This document shows positions 1 through 24,000 of a stretch of 24,000 nt of DNA, one piece after another. The stretch is from an uncultured beta proteobacterium (GTDB taxonomy: Bacteria; Pseudomonadota; Gammaproteobacteria; Burkholderiales; Casimicrobiaceae). A model generated the notes under the pieces. That model did no database searches. It saw nothing but the letters and a program-made list of their open reading frames with translations, and was not told the DNA's origin. Made by a program: the position numbers and the translations under genes. The stretch covers positions 476,880 to 500,879 of the forward strand of contig CAVZQQ010000004.1 in assembly GCA_963777455.1 (NCBI GenBank), read 5' to 3'. Every line of letters starts with the position of its first letter. The stretch's first letter is position 1.

Positions 1-868
1 GCCCAACGTTGCCCCTGCCGATGACCAATATTCTGAGCGGCGGCCTGCACGCTGGTCGTGGCATGGACGTGCAGGACTTCCTCGCCATCCCCCTGCGCGC
101 CGATTCGTTGCACGAAGCGATCCACCTAATTGCTCGTGTGCGATCGGCCGCTACCGAGGTGGCACGCGAGCGGGGATTGCCAACCCTTCTCGCCGACGAG
201 GGCGGCCTGGGTCCGGGTCTGGCGACGAGCCGGGCCGCCCTGCAGCTGATGGTTGCCTCGATCGAGCGCGCCGGCCTGCGGCCCGGTGAGGACATGGCGC
301 TGGCAATCGACGTCGCGGCAAGCTCCTTGAAGCAGCCCGACGGCAGCTACCGACTCGCGCGTGAGGGTCGCGACTGTGCCCGGATGCAGATGATCGCAAT
401 GCTGGAGGATTGGCTGCGCGAATTTCCGATCCTCTCGATCGAAGATGGACTCGACGAGGAAGACTGGGACGGCTGGAAGGTGCTCAGCGCACGCCTGGCG
501 GAACAAGTTGCAGCTGGTGGGCGACGACCTGTTCGCGACCAACTCGCGAGCGCCTTGGCCGCGGCATTCGCGAAGGCATCGCCAATGCCGTGCTGATCAA
601 GGCCAACCAGAACGGTACGCTCAGCGGGACCCTAGAGGTCATCGCGCAGGCCAAGGCGGCGGGCTACGCGACCATCATCTCGGCGCGATCGGGCGAAACC
701 GAGGATACCTTCATCGCTGACCTTGCGGTTGGCGCGACCGCGGGCCAGATCAAGATCGGTTCGCTGCGCACGCAGGGCACGGTTGCCAAGTACAACCAGT
801 TGCTGCGTATCGAGGAGCAGTGCGACGCGGTCTTCGCCGGCGTCGGCGCGCTCCGCGGCCGGCGGTGA
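1..868 (+). pseudogene. Enolase-family (phosphopyruvate hydratase-like) paralog. The 5' end lies outside the window and the frame as written is broken twice (~504 and ~550).
   Basis: Three ORF-track pieces (9-596, 445-720, 410-868, one per forward frame) join into one enolase-like sequence. Motifs seen: [127 protein letters not shown]. Frame switches were located by hand at gaa-c-aag (~504) and cga-g-cgc (~550). Stop TGA at 866-868. Confidence 0.8.
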
Positions 869-1930
869 GCGGATGGATCCCCACGCTTCGGGCTTGGACG
901 CATGCCTGCAGTGCTCACGGCCTAGCCGGAGCGAACGAAGTGGCGCGCTGGTCCCCACTGGTCGGCGGCGTGTCGTCGGAAATTTGGCGCGTCGACTTGC
1001 CCGGCCGCAGCCTATGCGTCAAGCGTGCACTGCCCAGGCTCAAGGTCGGGGTCGATTGGGAAGCACCGGTCTCGCGCAATGCTTACGAATGGGCTTGGCT
1101 GCGCTTCGCTGCCGAGCACCAGCCGCAGGCTGTCCCACGGCCGCTTGCGCACGATGCCGCCGCCGGCCTGTTCGTGATGAGCCTTCTTCCGCCCGAGACG
1201 CACCCGGTATGGAAGCAGCAGCTGCTCGAGGGCGTGGTCGAGCCCGGCGTCGCGGCACAGGTCGAGCAGAGTGCTGGCGCGGCTGCATGAGGCGAGCGCG
1301 CACCGGGACGACCTGGCGCAGACCTTCGACACGCTCCCCAACTTCCATGCGCTGCGCCTCGACCCCTACCTGCTCGCAACGGCGGGTCGGCACCCGGATA
1401 TCGCCAACCGCCTGCAGGCTCTGGTGCTGCGCACTGGCGGCACACGCCTGGCGCTGGTACACGGGGACGTGAGCCCGAAGAACATCCTCGTCGGCCCTAA
1501 AGGCCCAGTGCTCCTCGATGCCGAGTGTGCCTGGTACGGCGACCCGGCCTTCGACGTGGCCTTTTGCCTGAACCACCTCCTGCTGAAATGCCTCGTGCAG
1601 CCGGGATGCGCCGGGAATCTGCTTGAGGCCTTCGCGACCTTTGTGGCAACCTATTTCGACACGGCACGCTTCGAGTCGCGCAATACACTCGAGGCGCGAG
1701 CGGCCTCCCTCCTGCCCGCGCTGCTATTGGCCCGCGTCGACGGCAAGTCGCCGGTCGAATACCTCGTTGGACACCCACTGCAACAGGGGCTGGTACGACA
1801 GGTCGCGCGACCGTTGATCGCCAACGCGCCAGCGCGGCTCGCGACGGTCGCCGAATCCTGGCGGATTGCGATCCTGCGCGAGTACGATCCGGCGGTTGCA
1901 CCAGCCGCCGGAAGGCCGCGCCTCCTTTAG
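865..1930 (+). pseudogene. MtnK/APH-family small-molecule kinase (phosphotransferase). One frame break at ~1262-1271; the start codon is uncertain.
   Basis: ORFs 820-1290 and 1271-1930 join into one kinase-like protein. Motifs: GGVSSEIWRV..LCVKRALPRLKV, the catalytic loop LVHGDVSPKNILV (HGDxxxxN), and LLDAECAWYGDPAFDVAF, which resembles the DxEFAxYGxxxFD block of methylthioribose kinase. GTG 865 overlaps the upstream TGA. An ATG at 873 lies in a different frame, so a further break near ~905 cannot be excluded. Stop TAG at 1928-1930. Confidence 0.7.
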
Positions 1931-1996: not shown

Positions 1997-2896
1997 CTAC
2001 AGCGTGTTGACGAACGCCACCATGCGCTTGCGCTGGTCCGGATCGGGCAGGCGGCCGCGCATGGCCCCCAGATTGTCGGCCATGTGCACCGGGTTCGAGG
2101 TGCCGGGAATGACGGCCGTGACTCGCTCGTCGGCAAGCAGGTACTTGAGGAAGAACTGCGCCCACGTGCCGGCGAAGTCCCGGGCCCAATCCGGAATGGG
2201 CTTTTCGCCCACCGCGCGAAACAGGCGGCCACGCCCAAAGGGCAGCGCCGTCAGGACGCCGGCCTTGACGGAGGCCGCCAGCGCCAGGATGCGTTCCTCC
2301 GCCAGGCGGTCGTCGAGGGAATAGTCTACCTGCACGAAATCCGGCTTCTCGTGTTCGAGCACCCCTTCGATGGCGGCAAAATCACGATGGGAAGTGGAGG
2401 TGATGCCGATGTAGCGGCAAAGACCTTGCGCCTTCCAGTCTCTGAATCGCGCCAATGATTGCCGCGGGTCACGGACATTGTGCAGCTGCAACAGGTCGAC
2501 TTTCGCTGTCTTGAGCCGCGCCAGCGAGCGTTTGAATTCGGCAACGTCGGGTTCCTCGACCTTCGTGGCGACGAAGATCTTGTCCCGCAAACCTGCCGCC
2601 GCAATCACGTTGCCGAGCACGGTTTCGGCATCGCCGTAGGACGAGGCCGTGTCGATGAGTCGTCCGCCGGCATCGACCAGCACGCGGATGACCTGCGCCG
2701 CGGCGCGCCGCGTTCGCTCATCATCGCTGTCGAACACACTGGCAGTGCCCAGGCCAACCACCGGCAGGCGCTCGCCCGTGCTTGGGATCGCGCGGGTAAC
2801 GAGCGGCCCCTCGTTGCTCTGCGCGAATGCGGGCCGCGCCAGCAACGCCGAGGCCGCGAGCAAAGTAAAGTCGCGACGGGTCATGCGGTTCATCAT
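1997..2896 (-). CDS. Aldo/keto reductase with an N-terminal twin-arginine (Tat) signal peptide.
   Basis: The translation starts MMNRMTRRDFTLLAASALLARPAFAQ (TRRDFTL twin-arginine motif, hydrophobic core, AxA-type end). The AKR-like body follows: LPVVGLGT, IDTASSYGDAE, DKIFVATKV, VDLLQLHN, GITS. I chose ATG 2896 rather than the ORF-track start at 3004 for two reasons: GGAG lies upstream, and the ATG overlaps the upstream gene's TGA (TGATG). Confidence 0.85.
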   Translation of the reverse strand: MMNRMTRRDFTLLAASALLARPAFAQSNEGPLVTRAIPSTGERLPVVGLGTASVFDSDDERTRRAAAQVIRVLVDAGGRLIDTASSYGDAETVLGNVIAAAGLRDKIFVATKVEEPDVAEFKRSLARLKTAKVDLLQLHNVRDPRQSLARFRDWKAQGLCRYIGITSTSHRDFAAIEGVLEHEKPDFVQVDYSLDDRLAEERILALAASVKAGVLTALPFGRGRLFRAVGEKPIPDWARDFAGTWAQFFLKYLLADERVTAVIPGTSNPVHMADNLGAMRGRLPDPDQRKRMVAFVNTL

Positions 2897-4152
2897 CAAT
2901 CTCCCTGCGCGGCCGCGGCCGCTGCCTGGACCGCGCGGCGCTCCTGAGCCCGACCTAGAGCCGTCGACAGGAGGAGCCATCCTCCCACCACCGGCAACGC
3001 GCATAGCGCAATCGCACCGAGCTTGAGGCCGAGCGCTTGTAGGCTGTCGAACACCCAGGCGTAAAACGCGTCGGAGCCGCGATAGATCACTACGTCGATC
3101 AGGTTCTTCGCCTTGTACTTCTCCTCGCGTCGGACGACGGTGAAGAACACCTGCCGCGCTGGATTAGCGATAGCGAAGTTCATCCAGCGCTGCGCCACTT
3201 GGACCACTAGGACTACGCTGAGGGTCGGCGAGAGAGCCAGGGCCGCGAAGCCGGCGATGTACACCGCCGGCAGCGCACCGGCTGTTACGCCCGTGCCAAA
3301 ACGCTTGAGCAACCGCCCTGTGGCGAACACTTGCGTGGCCAAAGTCAGCAATCCGACCCACAGGTCGATGCTAGCGAAAATGCGCGTCTGCTCGCCGGCG
3401 CCATGGACGGTTGCGGATACGATATTGGCCTGCGCGAGATAGAGAATAGTCGCGCCGAACGACAGCAGGCTTACCCATGCGCCCACGCCCAGCAGGTAGG
3501 GGGAGCGGAACAGTTCAGGTAGCGCCGCAAAAGCGCTACCCCCGATGCGGCGTTGCTCTGGGCGTGCGCCTTGCCACGCACTGCTGCTGTGCTCGAGGCG
3601 GTAGACACAGAACACGGCCAATTCGAGCAACACGACGGCGGCGATCAACAGGTTGGTCGGGCCGAGCGGTACCGAAAGACCGATGGTAATGATCGGGCCG
3701 AGCAGTCCGCCTGCCGTGCCGCCGGCACCAATGAAGCCGAACAGGCGCTTGCCCTGTTCGCTGGTAAAGATGTCGGCCATGAACGACCAGAACACCGCGA
3801 CGGCAAAGAGATTGAACACGCTGACCCAGACGAAGAAGACACGCGCCACGATCACTGTCGCAATGTCGAGGGTCAGCAACAACCAGAACAGCGCGAGATT
3901 CGCGACGAAAAAATGCAGGACCACAGGGATGAACCGGGCGCGTGGCAACCGCGCCACGAGCGCACCGTAGAATGGTTGTGCCAGGAGCAGTGTCACGAAC
4001 GTCGCGGTGAATAGCCATGGCAGGGCCTTGATGCCACCGGCGATGCCCATCTGGTCACGTAGCGGCCGTAGCACGTAGTAGCCCGCCAGGAGCGTAAAAA
4101 AATAGGCGAACGACCACAGCGCTGCCGCGCGCTCCTCGGGCGTGGCCGGCAC
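2896..4152 (-). CDS. Polytopic inner-membrane transporter, MFS-like, related to the ATP/ADP-translocase (TLC/Npt, AAA) family.
   Basis: 418 aa and highly hydrophobic with many predicted TM segments. N-terminal FAYFFTLLAGYYVLRPLRDQMGI matches the TLC-family pattern F..F..L..Y..LR..KD. VFFVWVSVFNLFAVAVFWSFMADIFTSEQGKRLFGFIGAGGTAGG matches the TLC pattern FY...ELW.....LFW.FAN.I...EAKRFY. GTG start at 4152. The family assignment is from remembered motifs, not a search. Confidence 0.6.
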   Translation of the reverse strand: MPATPEERAAALWSFAYFFTLLAGYYVLRPLRDQMGIAGGIKALPWLFTATFVTLLLAQPFYGALVARLPRARFIPVVLHFFVANLALFWLLLTLDIATVIVARVFFVWVSVFNLFAVAVFWSFMADIFTSEQGKRLFGFIGAGGTAGGLLGPIITIGLSVPLGPTNLLIAAVVLLELAVFCVYRLEHSSSAWQGARPEQRRIGGSAFAALPELFRSPYLLGVGAWVSLLSFGATILYLAQANIVSATVHGAGEQTRIFASIDLWVGLLTLATQVFATGRLLKRFGTGVTAGALPAVYIAGFAALALSPTLSVVLVVQVAQRWMNFAIANPARQVFFTVVRREEKYKAKNLIDVVIYRGSDAFYAWVFDSLQALGLKLGAIALCALPVVGGWLLLSTALGRAQERRAVQAAAAAAQGD

Positions 4153-4182
4153 CGCCCGCCCAAGCCAGCGCCGGAGCGACGG

Positions 4183-4930
4183 TCACGGTGCCAACGACAG
4201 CTTCTGCTTGAGTTCGGCGGCGGTGACCGCTTGGCCGTAGCCGGGCGCACCGCGCTGGAACCGGCGCGCATCGACGAGTTTGCCGACGACAACTGGCTCG
4301 AAGCCGGCATCGCGCACCAGTCCCGCCGCCACCAGCACGGCTTCGGGATCGTCGCCGGCGATCGGGATGGCGAGCTTCGGATCGGGCCGGTTCGCCTCGC
4401 GTGCGAAGATCATGTAGGAGAGCGTGTTGAATGCGCGCACCACGCGCGTGCCGGGCAGATATTTCTGCGACGCCACGCCGACGCCGTCGCGTTCCACCTC
4501 GTCGGCGATGGCGCCGTCACGCGCGGCGACGGCGTTGTCGGCGTCAAGCACGATCTTGCCCTTGAGCGCGGCCGGCGTAGTCCTGCCCAAGCCGCGGCAA
4601 CGCGCCATAGGGCACGGCGATAAAGAGCACATCGCTGAAGGCGATAGCCTGCGCCACCGTACCGGCGCGGGCAAGGGGACCGAGTCCGGCAACCAGATCC
4701 TTGAGTTCCTCGGGATGGCGCGAAGAGAACAGGACTGGGTGGCCGGCCTTGACCCACAAACCGCCGATCGTCCCGCCGATATGACCGGAGCCGATGACGC
4801 CAACGGGTAGCTTGGCGCCGCCGGTTGTCTGTGCGCGAGCCGGCGATAGGTTCAGCGCCCCGGCAAGGGCCAAGCCGCCGCTTGCGGCTAACAATCGACG
4901 ACGGTTACGGGCCACGGGCTGCTTGGGCAT
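4183..4930 (-). pseudogene. COG2085 / F420-dependent NADP oxidoreductase-like Rossmann protein with a Tat-like signal peptide; single frame break at ~4575.
   Basis: ORF 4544-4930 reads MPKQPVARNRRRLLAASGGLALAGALNLSPARAQ, then the dinucleotide-binding VGVIGSGHIGGTIG. The C-terminal two thirds continue in ORF 4183-4803 (ALKGKIVLDADNA..RVVRAFNT..IPIAGDDPEA..AGFEPVVVGKL). The junction was traced by hand at GQDY / PAALKGK (~4574-4580). GAGGAG lies 6 nt upstream of ATG 4930. Confidence 0.65.
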
Positions 4931-5114
4931 CGAAAGCTCCTCGAAATCGGGCTGTTGAGTTACGCCGTCCGGCAGGGTCGCAACGACGGGCCGACCGGCG
5001 CGATCAGAGTTGACGCACGCGGCAACGATCGACGATTAGCATAAGGCGTTTCTGTTGCAGTGAAAAGCCAGTGTACCCGCAGCCGCTCGGCGCCGTCAGG
5101 GTCACGCGGTGAAG

Positions 5115-5918
5115 CTACGCTTGGACCCGTTTCCCCAAGGACCTCATCAGCTGTTTGGTGCCTGTAACATCGGCGTAGATGGCAGGAACATTGTAGCCTC
5201 CCCGGTCCGAGCCCGCGGCATCGCGGACGCAGGCTGTAGGCCGGCAGGTACCGATCGAGCAACTCACGCATCGTGACCGGAATGCCGCTTGCGACGTGGC
5301 AAACTCGCCCACCCTCTGCACCCCTGGCGATGGCGGGAATCTGCTTGGCCACCTCATCCGTGGACACATAATCTCTGATGGCGGAAAGGGGGCCAAGTTC
5401 AATCGCCGACCTCCTGCCGGCCAGCACTTTTTCGATCTGCCGCCTCAGCCGCCCGACGAAAAGCCGCTCCGATAAGCCGGGGCCGTCCAGATTGAAGATC
5501 CGTGCCACGACGGCATCCACGCCGCGACTCGCGTAGAGGCCGGTAGGCTGAGTCTGCCACGCCTTGGGTAGTCCGTAAGTGGATACCGGGTTCAAGATCC
5601 AGTCCTCCCGTACGGGGTTACCCTCTGGCCGCACGCCGCCGTACTCGACCGCGGATCCGGCCAGGAAGACCCGGATCGCCAACTCCTCGGCGGTGTCCAA
5701 GAGGTGGCGTGCGGCTTCCACATTGAAACTGCCTCGTCGGCGCCGGCTCAGGAGTTCGCGGTACTATTCCCGACAACTCCCTCGTCGTCGGCAATCCGGC
5801 AAAGGTTGTAGGCAAGACCTCCCCCATGCTGGCCAAGTTGTCGAGGAGCCCGCACCGGCTGGACGCGTACAACGCCACCTCGGCAGAGCGACGAAGGAGA
5901 ATTGAAGAGCACTTTCAT
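5115..5918 (-). pseudogene. NAD-dependent epimerase/dehydratase (extended SDR) relic with multiple frame breaks.
   Basis: ORF 4960-5721 carries the SDR middle part: NVEAARHLLDTAEE..RVFLAGSAVEYG..PVSTYGLPK..ARIFNLDGPG..AIRDYVSTDEVA..CHVASG. The C-terminus continues in another frame (ORF 5115-5402: VPAIYADVTGTKQLMRSLG, stop at 5115) after a break at ~5225-5240. Upstream of 5721 the frame has a stop at 5764. An SDR-like MKVLF start exists at ATG 5918, but I could not recover a GxxGxxG motif in any frame, so the 5' boundary is soft. Confidence 0.55.
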
Positions 5919-12752: not shown

Positions 12753-12869
12753 CAGCCGCCGATCGAGCCAAGGTACTGTGCCGGCTCGCGCAATCGGATC
12801 GAGTTACCGACGGCGCGTATCGAGCTGGCGCACCAGAAGGGCTCGAGCATGAGAGTCTGGGATCGGCCT

Positions 12870-14999
12870 CTAGTCTGCGGTGTGTTGCAATCCGACGACC
12901 TCTCGCTTGTCGGCATCGATGGTGAAGCCGACGTGATCGCCAGGATTGAACCCCAAGAGCAACTCCGCCGGCGCAACGAGGTAGCTCATGGTCATCGCCG
13001 CCATGAACCCTGGAATCTCCTTGTGCGCGATGATGATGCGCCCGGCGCGGCGATCCACGGCTTTGAGAGTGCCGGAGCCCCGGAACAGGTGGGCCGTAGG
13101 CGCTGTCCCTCCGTTACCGACACCGCTACGCGGCTGTTTCTCCACGGGCGCAGCGGCGGTGTCCGTGCCCGAAGCGCCGTTTTCAAGCGCCGTGACCATA
13201 GCCTCGGTTCCGGGGCTGCCGTGCCCGACGACGATCAGCCCGTGCATGCCCATCTGTTCATGCGTAGGCACATGGCAATGGAACTCGAGCGTCACGTCGT
13301 GATCGGGCGTGACGAACCGGCCGATTGTCGTTCCCGGCCCGCGGAAATCCAGCATAAACATCGGATCGAGCCCCGGGATCATCAGGTCGTGTCGGATCTC
13401 GTCGCTATTCTCGAGCACGACCTCGACGGTCTGGCACGGCTCGGCATGGATCACGCGCGGCTCGAAGCCGTAGACTTGGCCCGCGCCGGCGGCGCCGGTT
13501 CCCTCCCTGATCCGCACGCTAAGCGTACTCCTCGGCTCCTTGCAGGAGGTCGCCACGACCTTGTGGGTCTCCATTGGATCGGGCTGTCGCTGCTCGTCGC
13601 CTGTCGCGTCGCGAACCGGGAAGGGAGGATCGCCAGGCTCGTCACGCATCGCAGCCATCTGCTCGTGATAGATCGACGGATCGAATACCGGCACCTTGCC
13701 CTGGTAGTACGCCGGATCGAAGAATCGCTTCAGGTTCGTCGCTACCTTGGGTAGTCCGTCCGCGTCCTTGAACCCGTCGTAGACAATCACGGTTGCATCG
13801 CCGCCGGGACTTATGCCGTGGTTGGTCGCCGCACGTTCCGTATGGTCGTGCATCAGCCAGACGCCGGGTCCCGACGCATAGGTGCTGTCGCTGCCGGGGC
13901 GCAGCTCGAGGTCGGCGCGCTGCGCGGGTCCGATCGTCACAACGTCTCGCATCACGCGGGCGGCCTCCGGCACCGCATAGCCGTCGAGGGCGGTAACGAT
14001 GAAATGGTGGCCATGCGTGTGCAGGTTGATCGTGCTCTCGCCGGCATTGAGCACGCGCAGCAGCACACGGTCGCCCGCAGCCACTTCGATCGGGGTATCG
14101 CGCAGGGTGAACGGAAAGGAGCGGCCGTTGAGCAGAAAGACGTCTGGACGGCGTTGCGTGATGTCATAGTCGCGGTGCATCGCTCTCTCGATCTGCATCG
14201 GGTCTTTGTAGAGCGTGGGTATCCGATGCAGCCGGTCATCGACGTCCTGGTAGACCAGCGAGTACTCGCGCGTATAACCCTCCTCCCGCTCCGCCGCGGC
14301 GAGGTCCGGAATGCGTCCGGCGCCGACGATAAGATGGCGGAAATAGTTGTGCGGGCGGTTCGGTTCGACGATCAGCATCCCAGCGAGCCCCATGAGGATA
14401 TGCACGTCCGGTTGCACGTGGCAGTGATAGAAGAAGGTCCCGGGGTGCTGCGCCACGAACTCGTAGGTGAACGACTTGCCGGGCATGACTGCCGTCTGGG
14501 TGATATCAGGTACACCATCCATGGCGTTGGGATGGATGGTGCCGTGCAAGTGGATCGTGTGCGGAAAGTAGTGCGTGTTCTCCAGGATGATCTTGACGTG
14601 GTCGCCCTCTTCCACCCGGATGGTGGGGCTCGGTGCGCGCGCGAGGGAGACCATGCCGTCGCCAGGCGGCGAGAACACCCAGAAGGTAACGAATTTTCCG
14701 GGATAGACTTCCTGTTGAATCTCGTCGACTTCCAGTCGGATCGTGACCTCATCGGCGTCGCCGTCGCCGTCCAGATCACGCCCGAGCACGACCGCATCCG
14801 GCGCTGCGCCTGGAATGACCTCGCGACACATGGTCCGGCGATCTGCGTCGCAGGCCGGCAGGCCCGCTGCACTATCCTCTTGGCCCACAATAGACAGGGC
14901 GCCGAAAGCGTTTGGCACCACCGAGCCCGAGACCAGCGCAACCGCAAGTGCCGTGGCGGCCAGCAGCCCGCTCATGCCGCTGTGGCTCGGAGGTTTCAT
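12870..14999 (-). CDS. Secreted four-module copper protein: two-domain multicopper oxidase + additional type-1 cupredoxin domain + C-terminal CusF-like domain.
   Basis: 709 aa, intact, with a Sec signal (LLAATALAVALVSGSVVPNAFGA). Domain 1 (aa ~85-212): HTIHLHG and YHCHVQPDVHILM. Domain 2 (aa ~285-410): NLHTHGHH and WLMHDH. Domain 3 (aa ~485-595): IRHDL ... FHCHVPTHEQMGM. C-terminus (aa ~638-705): GSGTLKAVDRRAGRIIIAHKEIPGFMAAMTMSYLV..GDHVGF, which resembles CusF-type Cu(I)-binding domains. Confidence 0.85.
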   Translation of the reverse strand: MKPPSHSGMSGLLAATALAVALVSGSVVPNAFGALSIVGQEDSAAGLPACDADRRTMCREVIPGAAPDAVVLGRDLDGDGDADEVTIRLEVDEIQQEVYPGKFVTFWVFSPPGDGMVSLARAPSPTIRVEEGDHVKIILENTHYFPHTIHLHGTIHPNAMDGVPDITQTAVMPGKSFTYEFVAQHPGTFFYHCHVQPDVHILMGLAGMLIVEPNRPHNYFRHLIVGAGRIPDLAAAEREEGYTREYSLVYQDVDDRLHRIPTLYKDPMQIERAMHRDYDITQRRPDVFLLNGRSFPFTLRDTPIEVAAGDRVLLRVLNAGESTINLHTHGHHFIVTALDGYAVPEAARVMRDVVTIGPAQRADLELRPGSDSTYASGPGVWLMHDHTERAATNHGISPGGDATVIVYDGFKDADGLPKVATNLKRFFDPAYYQGKVPVFDPSIYHEQMAAMRDEPGDPPFPVRDATGDEQRQPDPMETHKVVATSCKEPRSTLSVRIREGTGAAGAGQVYGFEPRVIHAEPCQTVEVVLENSDEIRHDLMIPGLDPMFMLDFRGPGTTIGRFVTPDHDVTLEFHCHVPTHEQMGMHGLIVVGHGSPGTEAMVTALENGASGTDTAAAPVEKQPRSGVGNGGTAPTAHLFRGSGTLKAVDRRAGRIIIAHKEIPGFMAAMTMSYLVAPAELLLGFNPGDHVGFTIDADKREVVGLQHTAD

Positions 15000-15027
15000 T
15001 CGTAGTCCGACGTTCCTAATACGAACA

Positions 15028-22737: not shown

Positions 22738-24000
22738 CTCACTCTCTCCGGCACGGGTTTGGTCTTGTCGCGAGCGGTATACCAGGGCATCAGCACAAAG
22801 AACAGGAAATACACCAGCGTCAACAAGCCGCGCGAGCCACGTCGCCCGGTCCTTGGTATCGAGCACTTCCGACCAGCCGCCGCTGAACTGTCCCCAGACG
22901 GTGACCGAGACGGTGCCGAGGTAGCCCAGCACGAGGAAGCAGAAGACGAAGATCGCCAGCCAGGTCTTGTAGAGCGCGCCGCGATAGCGGATCGACTTCA
23001 CCGCGCCGCGATCGAGCCAGGGCAGGAAGAAAAAGATGACGACCCCGGCGCCCATCACCAGAACTCCCCAGAACTGCGAGTTCGAGGAACGACGGCACCG
23101 CGCGCAGCATCGCGTAATAAGGCGTGAAGTACCACACCGGCGCGATGTGCTCCGGCGTCTTCAGCGGATCGGCGGGAATGAAGTTGTTCGATTCGAGGAA
23201 GTAGCCGCCGACATCAGGAAGGAAAAAAATCGACGATCGCAAAGATGATGAGGAAGAAGACGATCCCGACCAGGTCCTTGATCGTGTAGTACGGATGCGA
23301 ATAGATGCCGTCGAGATAGATGCCGGTCTTCGGGTCCTTGGGCTGGTTCTTGATCTCGATGCCGTCCGGGTTGTTCGACCCGACTTCGTGCAGGGCCATC
23401 AGGTGCGCCGCCGCCAGAGCCAGCAGCACCAGCGGCAGCGCCGCGACGTGAAACGCGAAGAAGCGATTGAGCGTCACGTCGGAGATCGTGTAGTCGCCGC
23501 GAATCCAAGTGCCGAGGTCCTCGCCGATGACCGGCACTGTCGAGAATAGATTAACGATTACCTGCGCGCCCCAGTACGACATCTGTCCCCACGGCAGCAG
23601 GTAGCCGAAAAAAGCCTCCGCCATCAACGCCAAGTAAAGAAAACAGCCGATAATCCAAAGCAGTTCGCGCGGCTTGCGATAGCTGCCGTAGAGCAAGCCG
23701 CGGAACATGTGCAGATAGACGATGATGAAGAACGCCGACGCGCCGGTCGAGTGCATGTAGCGGATGAGCCAACCGCCGGATACGTCGCGCATCATGTACT
23801 CGATCGACTCGAACGCCTTGGTCGCGTCGGGCTTGTAGGTCATGGCCAGGAAGATGCCGGTCACGATCTGCAGCACCAGCACGAAGGCCGCGAGCGAGCC
23901 GAAGTAGTACCAGAAGTTGAAATTCTTCGGCGCGATGTACTTGCCCCACTGCTCTTCCCACAGCTTGCGTCAGTGGGAAGCGGGCGTCGATCCAGGTCAG
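22731..24000 (-). pseudogene. petB: Cytochrome b of the bc1 complex; the 5' end runs out of the window and there are four frame breaks inside it.
   Basis: Hand-joined translation: LTWIDARFPLT / KLWEEQWGKYIAPKNFNFWYYFGSLAAFVLVLQIVTGIFLAMTY..RYMHSTGASAFF..GYLLPWGQMSYWGAQVI.. / FFLPDVGGYFLESNNFIPADPLKTPEHIAPVWYFTPYYAMLRAVPSF / NSQFWGVLVMGAGVVIFFFLPWLDR..KSIRYRG.. / LTLVYFLFFVLMPWYTARDKTKPVPERVRW*. Breaks lie at ~23967, the A7 run at 23223-23229, ~23080-23088 and ~22822-22828. Each behaves as one extra base. Confidence 0.9.

Follow-up and report, generated by a model that had tools for sequence, protein, structure and literature searches.

How can an enzyme that depends on NADP(H) work outside the cytoplasm? 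The periplasm is commonly considered to be without NAD(P)H, and the few known nicotinamide enzymes that are exported manage with a permanently bound cofactor. The question is posed by three adjacent genes in a 24,000-nucleotide stretch of DNA from an uncultured betaproteobacterium of the family Casimicrobiaceae (assembly GCA_963777455.1, contig CAVZQQ010000004.1, positions 476,880 to 500,879), which is referred to below, at its full length, as the window. All three genes lie on the minus strand and together occupy window positions 1997-4930. The analysis shows that they form a conserved, translationally coupled operon, in which a membrane carrier resembling the nucleotide transporters (NTTs) is flanked by two catalytically intact NADP-type oxidoreductases with twin-arginine leaders, the signals for twin-arginine translocation (Tat).

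The layout itself is simple (Table 1). The three same-strand genes and the TGATG stop/start overlap between the second and the third had been picked out in the initial annotation, and both hold: the overlap is read directly from the DNA, with GGGAG upstream of it. The 30-nt gap that had been described between the first gene and the carrier is present in the sequence as given, but it is probably an artefact of an extra base near 4180. A scan for promoters and terminators gave only chance-level signal. An epimerase gene at 4960-5878 on the same strand was considered as a fourth member and rejected; it is without a Tat leader, is frame-broken, and does not lie beside the trio in relatives.

What kind of enzymes are these? 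The N-terminal piece of gene 1 matches PF03807 (F420_oxidored) at 47 bits, against a cut-off of 21.6, and an intact orthologue retrieves from the PDB FNO, the NADPH domains of STEAP3 and STEAP4, and the uncharacterised structures 4huj and 2raf, with E values of 1e-10 to 1e-13. The first gene thus encodes a Rossmann protein of the F420-NADP-oxidoreductase type, as had been proposed. It shares the PF03807 domain with FNO/NpdG and the STEAP NADPH domains and differs from them in carrying a Tat leader, which is followed by the G-x-G-x-x-G Rossmann fold and then by an S-S-R motif that, judged by FNO and STEAP, fits NADP. F420 itself seems an unlikely partner: a search of the genome, of which only 78% is complete, revealed neither of the F420 biosynthesis genes CofE (PF01996) and CofD (PF01933).

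Gene 3 was correctly identified at the outset as an aldo/keto reductase (AKR) and matches PF00248 at 118 bits. Its closest matches among solved structures come from bacteria and are AKRs of the 2,5-diketogluconate reductase type (E 7e-17). With the cytoplasmic AKRs of the DkgA/DkgB type (PDB 5dan, 6kik) its family has in common the PF00248 barrel, the D-Y-K-H tetrad and the C-terminal cofactor motif; it is set apart by the Tat leader and by a conserved mature N-terminus, R-x-I-P-x-x-G-E, and gene 3 scores far under all NCBIfam equivalog cut-offs (48 bits, versus 327 for DkgB). The catalytic tetrad is conserved among 93 family members (D in 93, Y in 92, K in 93 and H in 91), which marks these proteins as functional enzymes of hydride transfer rather than mere binders. 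Neither enzyme of the window matches PF01408 or PF02894, the Gfo/Idh/MocA models.

Both enzymes of the window begin with a twin-arginine pair, a hydrophobic stretch and an A-x-A site when their leaders are read by eye, and every orthologue inspected in the same way has the RR pair, the hydrophobic stretch and, for cleavage, a site of small residues that in most cases reads A-x-A. The twin-arginine-type signals originally seen on both outer enzymes are therefore upheld as a motif, one that is kept in the orthologues. Among 55 anchored reading frames of the AKR cluster, an automatic scan found an RR-type leader in 50; of the remaining five, four have single-Arg leaders (S-R-[A/G]-[D/E]-F-L-[K/R]) and one is a mis-called frame. 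RR-type leaders also stand on the FNO-like partners and on the epimerase-like partners described below. Four orthologous leaders pass the curated Tat model TIGR01409 (cut-off 16.7 bits): L012 at 23.1, L087 at 23.7, L092 at 20.5 and L091 at 19.1 bits. The one at 23.1 bits is the D-R-R-S-F-L-K leader of a gene-1 orthologue, and two of the four come from gene-3 orthologues. In a Rhodospirillales metagenome-assembled genome (L081 / L094), three tandem AKR paralogues follow the carrier, with the single-Arg leaders S-R-A-D-F-L-K and S-R-G-D-F-L-K.

To which family does the carrier belong? Against Pfam its sole match is PF07690 (MFS_1, the major facilitator superfamily, MFS) at 44.4 bits, with a cut-off of 33.4, and no NCBIfam model matches it. 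It is therefore not filed under PF03219, the TLC models of Pfam and NCBIfam being unmatched. One close homologue (P0067) has a precomputed PF03219 match, and the close homologues are labelled "AAA family ATP:ADP antiporter" by JGI and "MFS transporter" by NCBI. The closest known systems are the NTT/TLC transporters (PF03219, TC 2.A.12), which include NTT1 of C. pneumoniae, AtNTT1 of Arabidopsis and the NAD+/ADP exchanger NTT4 of Protochlamydia. A profile of nine members of the carrier family finds NTT1 as its best match in the PDB (9j3n, E 8e-9, residues 103-403), with OxlT next at E 7.5e-5. An AlphaFold2 model built from 90 sequences (pLDDT 90.9) has 12 long helices, and Foldseek places three NTT structures of NTT1 and AtNTT1 (9j3n, 9j3l and 9j3m) in ranks 1-3, with TM-scores of 0.76-0.82 and E values of 9e-11 to 6e-10, followed by other MFS proteins (NorA, SPNS2, LacY) from E 2e-7. 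With NTT1 the carrier shares an N-terminal Y-x-V-L-R-x-x-[RK]-D, an F-W-x-F, a K-R, and a basic block, K-x-K-x-K...I-D-V-V...R.

The likeness to the NTTs is thus one of 12-helix MFS fold and of best profile match. On the other hand, the present carrier is some 70-80 residues shorter, is only 15-19% identical to them and fails PF03219; it occurs in free-living soil and water bacteria, beside Tat-signal oxidoreductases. By profile and by predicted fold, then, the carrier is a divergent sister subfamily of the NTTs, outside PF03219. The resemblance to the TLC/Npt family first noted for this gene is lost at the level of the Pfam model and retained in that the solved NTTs are its nearest relatives both by profile and by fold (TM-score up to 0.82), and for the same reason it does not fall into an unrelated MFS subfamily with a known non-nucleotide substrate, the outcome that had been named as speaking against the idea. 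A survey of NTT diversity from 2017, which mentions PF03219, covers NTT-HEAT and further fusions of free-living bacteria; the gene context considered here is absent from it (PMC5381601). At two loci, L098 (G044:C121) and L099 (G045:C198), open frames that are 1075 and 1163 aa long contain weak matches to the carrier; these may be of the NTT-HEAT fusion type known from the literature.

How widely is the arrangement conserved? Among 41 genomes of relatives, 12 have the carrier, and the AKR adjoins it in 10 of the 11 loci from other genomes, including five other families of the order. In a scan of public data limited to one genome per species, which gave 80 loci, 75 of 79 contain the AKR cluster and 41 have the FNO-like gene. 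All three genes stand together in 41 of the 80 loci, so that the trio, the co-occurrence of which had been proposed as a check, does recur elsewhere, and the carrier-AKR pair is far more widespread. When 90 carriers were examined, 83 loci had enough flanking sequence, and in 67 of these a Tat-signal NAD(P)-type enzyme adjoined the carrier. No further conserved neighbour, whether regulator or other transporter, was found around the carrier, and the other large clusters of open reading frames (ORFs) are shadow frames or local synteny. At one betaproteobacterial locus (L052, 7298-8113), a LigB-type extradiol dioxygenase (PF02900) without a Tat leader lies downstream of the carrier.

The module spans Pseudomonadota, Gemmatimonadota and Myxococcota, with single loci in other phyla. 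According to the records, its hosts are, among others, Casimicrobiaceae, Xanthobacteraceae, Variovorax, Xenophilus, Beijerinckiaceae, Acidiferrobacterales and Rhodospirillales, as well as "Deltaproteobacteria" (placed in Myxococcota by the tree tool), and there are records labelled Desulfobacteraceae, Nitrospinae, Nitrospira and Gemmatimonadota. Carriers and flanking enzymes are up to 83% identical between Xanthobacteraceae, which are Alphaproteobacteria, and the betaproteobacterial Casimicrobiaceae and Variovorax (L015-L050 versus L013, L014 and L038), and the two classes are intermixed in the carrier tree. Such identity across classes, together with the intermixed tree, suggests that the unit moves horizontally, and the whole of it appears to have been transferred in this way in the recent past.

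The enzyme beside the carrier is not always of the same kind. At eight sampled loci of Gemmatimonadota, the adjacent gene encodes a protein, some 385 aa long, that has a canonical Tat leader and an extended-SDR ("epimerase") Rossmann fold, PF01370. The partners therefore comprise three unrelated folds, the AKR TIM barrel, the FNO-like Rossmann fold and the extended SDR, that have in common only a Tat leader and an NAD(P) site. In the carrier tree, AKR partners are found in almost every clade, and FNO-like and epimerase-like partners each mark clades of their own. The carrier has an invariant core (R29, R32, D127, R136, Q274, R322, R333, K347, K349, D353, R358 and D361), and these polar and charged positions are the same whichever enzyme adjoins, and also when none does. 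A core that does not change with the partner would fit one common ligand.

Does the carrier also go together with these enzymes when the genes lie apart? It was found in 137 of 301 sampled Gemmatimonadota genomes, often in two or three copies, and was cross-tabulated by hand from two result lists against the Tat-signal epimerase-like family. With the carrier present, the epimerase-like family was present in 102 genomes and not found in 35, of which 26 hold merely a weakly scoring homologue; with the carrier not found, it was present in five and not found in 159. Put the other way, 102 of the 107 genomes with the enzyme family also hold the carrier. Five Gemmatimonadota genomes in which the carrier has no adjacent enzyme have one or two Tat-signal AKRs and three to seven Tat-signal epimerase-like genes elsewhere, none of the inspected copies being less than 1.5 kb from the carrier gene, and in five carrier-negative genomes of the phylum none of these enzymes was found. 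At ten Gemmatimonadota loci (L105, L107, L111, L113, L117, L119, L121, L123, L125 and L126), two NTT-like paralogues face each other head to head with some 200-300 nt between them. Most of these loci show no oxidoreductase closer than 1.5 kb, and in the carrier tree one of the two paralogues makes up a basal clade on a long branch. Beside the pair at L125 (2804-3748, minus strand) lies a Tat-leader protein, the mature part of which looks like a sugar-phosphate isomerase/epimerase TIM barrel and not like an NAD(P) enzyme.

Among the 41 relatives, all 12 genomes with the carrier also have the AKR family, and of those in which the carrier was not found, 12 have the AKR and 17 do not. The carrier is thus always accompanied by such an enzyme in this sample, while at least this AKR clade manages without the carrier. 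Of nine more AKR loci (L129-L137), six belong to carrier-negative genomes and three to genomes with a carrier elsewhere; seven of the nine have RR leaders, one has a single-Arg variant, and one encodes a protein with no leader.

What, then, might the carrier be carrying? The best-supported answer, which we put forward tentatively, would be export of the folded enzymes by the Tat pathway, together with a carrier that brings NADP(H) through the inner membrane for them. The enzymes would fold and bind their cofactor in the cytoplasm, would then be exported, and would do their work in the periplasm, with the carrier moving the nicotinamide dinucleotide. Its most likely mode, by analogy with ATP/ADP carriers, would be an electrogenic exchange of cytoplasmic NADPH for periplasmic NADP+. 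NADPH has one more negative charge than NADP+, so an inside-negative membrane potential would favour its outward movement, as in ATP/ADP exchange, and the exported reductases could then turn over repeatedly. The proposal draws on the nucleotide carriers being the nearest relatives by profile and fold, and a chlamydial NTT reportedly exchanges NAD+ for ADP. The joint occurrence of carrier and enzymes in Gemmatimonadota and in the 12 carrier-positive relatives also counts in its favour, as do the conserved AKR tetrad and the S-S-R motif of gene 1. The wider claim, that some free-living bacteria keep a periplasmic NADP(H) pool, with a potential-driven carrier feeding Tat-exported reductases of unrelated folds encoded nearby and elsewhere, is also possible, and we hold it with greater reserve.

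A precedent for part of this is the glucose-fructose oxidoreductase (GFOR) of Zymomonas mobilis, which bears a twin-arginine leader, uses a nicotinamide cofactor and acts in the periplasm. This enzyme is cited as showing that a Tat substrate can carry NADP, and hence that NADP can leave the cytoplasm bound to the exported protein (Halbig 1999, as cited in PMC13673990). GFOR has the Gfo/Idh/MocA fold, in contrast to the AKR, FNO-like and extended-SDR enzymes considered here, which are encoded with a homologue of nucleotide carriers; the resemblance is one of principle, namely Tat export with NADP, and not of family membership. In GFOR the cofactor does not dissociate, and the two half-reactions of the enzyme itself recycle it. 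We know of no dedicated carrier gene for it. As to other precedents, a 2026 review of the Tat system lists NADP and F420 among exported cofactors, with the word "aldo" nowhere in its text (PMC13673990), and our literature search found no paper on this module or on Tat-exported aldo/keto reductases.

Several observations weigh against a carrier of NADP(H). About one-fifth of the carrier loci have no such enzyme adjacent. PF03219 is unmatched both by the carrier protein, even at E <= 10, and in the whole genome, and together with an identity to the NTTs of just 15-19% this means that the substrate could differ from theirs. Among 29 carrier-negative relatives, 12 possess Tat-signal AKRs of the same family, at about 40% identity; some of these genomes are 93-97% complete and have no detectable carrier homologue, and genomes 90-97% complete gave none even at E 0.01. 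The AKR is therefore not strictly dependent on the carrier, and strict dependence was discarded. Shared ancestry confounds the co-occurrence counts; the association between carrier and epimerase-like family in Gemmatimonadota is strong, but it is confounded by lineage and by incomplete genomes. TIGR01409 matches neither of the window's own two leaders. Finally, GFOR is a case of an exported NADP enzyme that can work with a non-dissociable cofactor and without any supply. It is because of this precedent, and of the AKRs without a carrier, that our preference for NADP(H) transport stays a tentative one. The suggestion first made for this locus, a periplasmic redox module with its own cofactor supply, thus gains from the three unrelated Tat-signal NAD(P) partner families and the partner-independent carrier core, and is weakened by the Tat-signal AKRs of carrier-less genomes.

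The chief alternative is that the carrier imports a product or exports a precursor, probably an anionic or nucleotide-like metabolite, and that the enzymes keep a tightly bound cofactor, as do GFOR and epimerases of the GalE type, while converting an organic compound in the periplasm. We consider this somewhat doubtful, though several points speak for it. In nutrient processing, an enzyme gene usually stands beside a transporter gene; of the AKRs with solved structures, sugar-acid reductases come nearest; and Pfam gives the carrier only as a generic MFS protein. Extended-SDR epimerases typically recycle a bound NAD. The asymmetry in the 41 genomes, where the carrier never occurs without a Tat-signal AKR and the AKR often occurs without the carrier, also fits a transporter of substrate or product. 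Against it, enzymes of three unrelated folds would all need compounds served by one carrier with an unchanging core, and all characterised relatives of that carrier move nucleotides. Moreover, the Tat-signal epimerase-like paralogues of Gemmatimonadota (three to seven in each of the five genomes checked) lie away from the carrier, yet the family tracks its presence, and no redox-neutral AKR reaction is known. If the cargo is a nucleotide, it might still be another one, such as ATP/ADP, or the carrier might salvage nucleotide breakdown products, its link to the exported enzymes being indirect. The closest solved relatives are indeed ATP/ADP exchangers, the JGI label of the homologues says as much, and NTT homologues without an assigned role are widespread in free-living bacteria (PMC5381601). 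However, this would leave unexplained why the conserved neighbours are Tat-signal NAD(P) enzymes and why the genes overlap, and there is no conserved ATP-using partner in the periplasm, so that we regard it as unlikely.

Two further alternatives would undercut any periplasmic role. The enzymes might stay unexported, their N-terminal extensions being membrane anchors or the result of mis-called starts, and the failure of the window's own leaders against TIGR01409 and PF10518 (E 0.32 for the gene-1 leader, below significance) could be taken in this way. This is very improbable, considering that the pattern of RR pair, hydrophobic stretch and cleavage site is kept in dozens of orthologues across phyla and that four of their leaders pass the curated model. 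In addition, a signal-less member of the AKR family (L137, G039:C17) begins exactly at the conserved mature N-terminus, which shows the extension to be a separable module; L137 itself looks like a cytoplasmic version of the enzyme. Or is the whole cluster a decaying pseudogene, non-functional in this organism? Gene 1 is split into two open frames (4930-4544 and 4803-4183), and an alignment of the DNA with five relatives, in all of which the gene is intact, traces the break, which had first been placed at about 4575, to a single surplus base near 4573. A second surplus base, near 4180, is confined to the window in an alignment of the junction with eight relatives. In all eight, a GTG or ATG start of the carrier overlaps the stop of gene 1 (GTGA or ATGA); in the window the extra base puts this start out of frame, so that a downstream GTG and the apparent gap are seen instead, and the carrier is given as 418 aa, whereas its homologues mostly have 429. 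Two insertions without counterpart in relatives are what decay would predict, but decay is nonetheless quite unlikely. The same 24 kb contains frame-broken genes for enolase, cytochrome b, an APH-type kinase/phosphotransferase and an NAD-dependent epimerase, and since enolase and cytochrome b are essential, assembly error is favoured. The source genome consists of four contigs and yet reaches a marker completeness of only 78%, a pattern typical of long-read indels that points to systematic single-base errors, and a closely related assembly carries private indels of its own. Apart from the two extra bases, both frames are open and 77-90% identical to intact relatives. Thus, the two defects are most likely errors of assembly rather than gene decay.

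Why does the distinction between cargoes matter? The conserved and often translational coupling of an NTT-like carrier with Tat-signal NADP enzymes over several phyla makes the module a candidate for a cofactor shuttle. If it is one, a new class of substrate and a new physiological role would be added to those of NTT-like carriers, a large set of puzzling annotations that combine a Tat signal with an NAD(P) enzyme would be explained, and a tool for NADPH-dependent biocatalysis in the periplasm might be at hand. If the carrier transports a substrate instead, the locus would still define a transporter subfamily and a family of periplasmic AKRs that are both new.

Table 1. Positions of the three-gene locus, its component features and the frame-split genes of the window.
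Feature	Position	Strand	Basis or remark
Gene 1, FNO/NpdG-like NADP-type Rossmann oxidoreductase	4183..4930	-	PF03807; split in assembly
Twin-arginine-type leader of gene 1, ~34 residues (N-R-R-R-L-L, hydrophobic stretch, A-R-A-Q)	4829..4930	-	read from sequence
Junction of gene 1 and carrier, 30-nt gap as sequenced	4153..4186	-	aligned with 8 relatives
Gene 2, 12-helix MFS carrier of a divergent NTT/TLC-like subfamily, 418 aa	2896..4152	-	PF07690, profile, predicted fold
Translational coupling site (TGATG overlap of carrier and AKR genes at 2898-2894; GGGAG at 2905-2901, immediately 5')	2894..2905	-	read from sequence
Gene 3, AKR with intact catalytic tetrad	1997..2896	-	PF00248
Twin-arginine-type leader of gene 3, 26 residues (T-R-R-D-F-T-L-L, hydrophobic stretch, A-F-A-Q)	2819..2896	-	read from sequence
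Enolase	3-868		frame-split
APH-type phosphotransferase	723-1930		frame-split
Epimerase	4960-5878	-	frame-split
Cytochrome b	23214-23882		frame-split

Elsewhere in the window, the minus strand at 12870-14999 encodes a multicopper oxidase of 709 aa that looks like a fusion, with a CusF-like copper-binding domain at its C-terminal end. The plus-strand ORFs that overlap it (12849-15005) are probably shadow frames.

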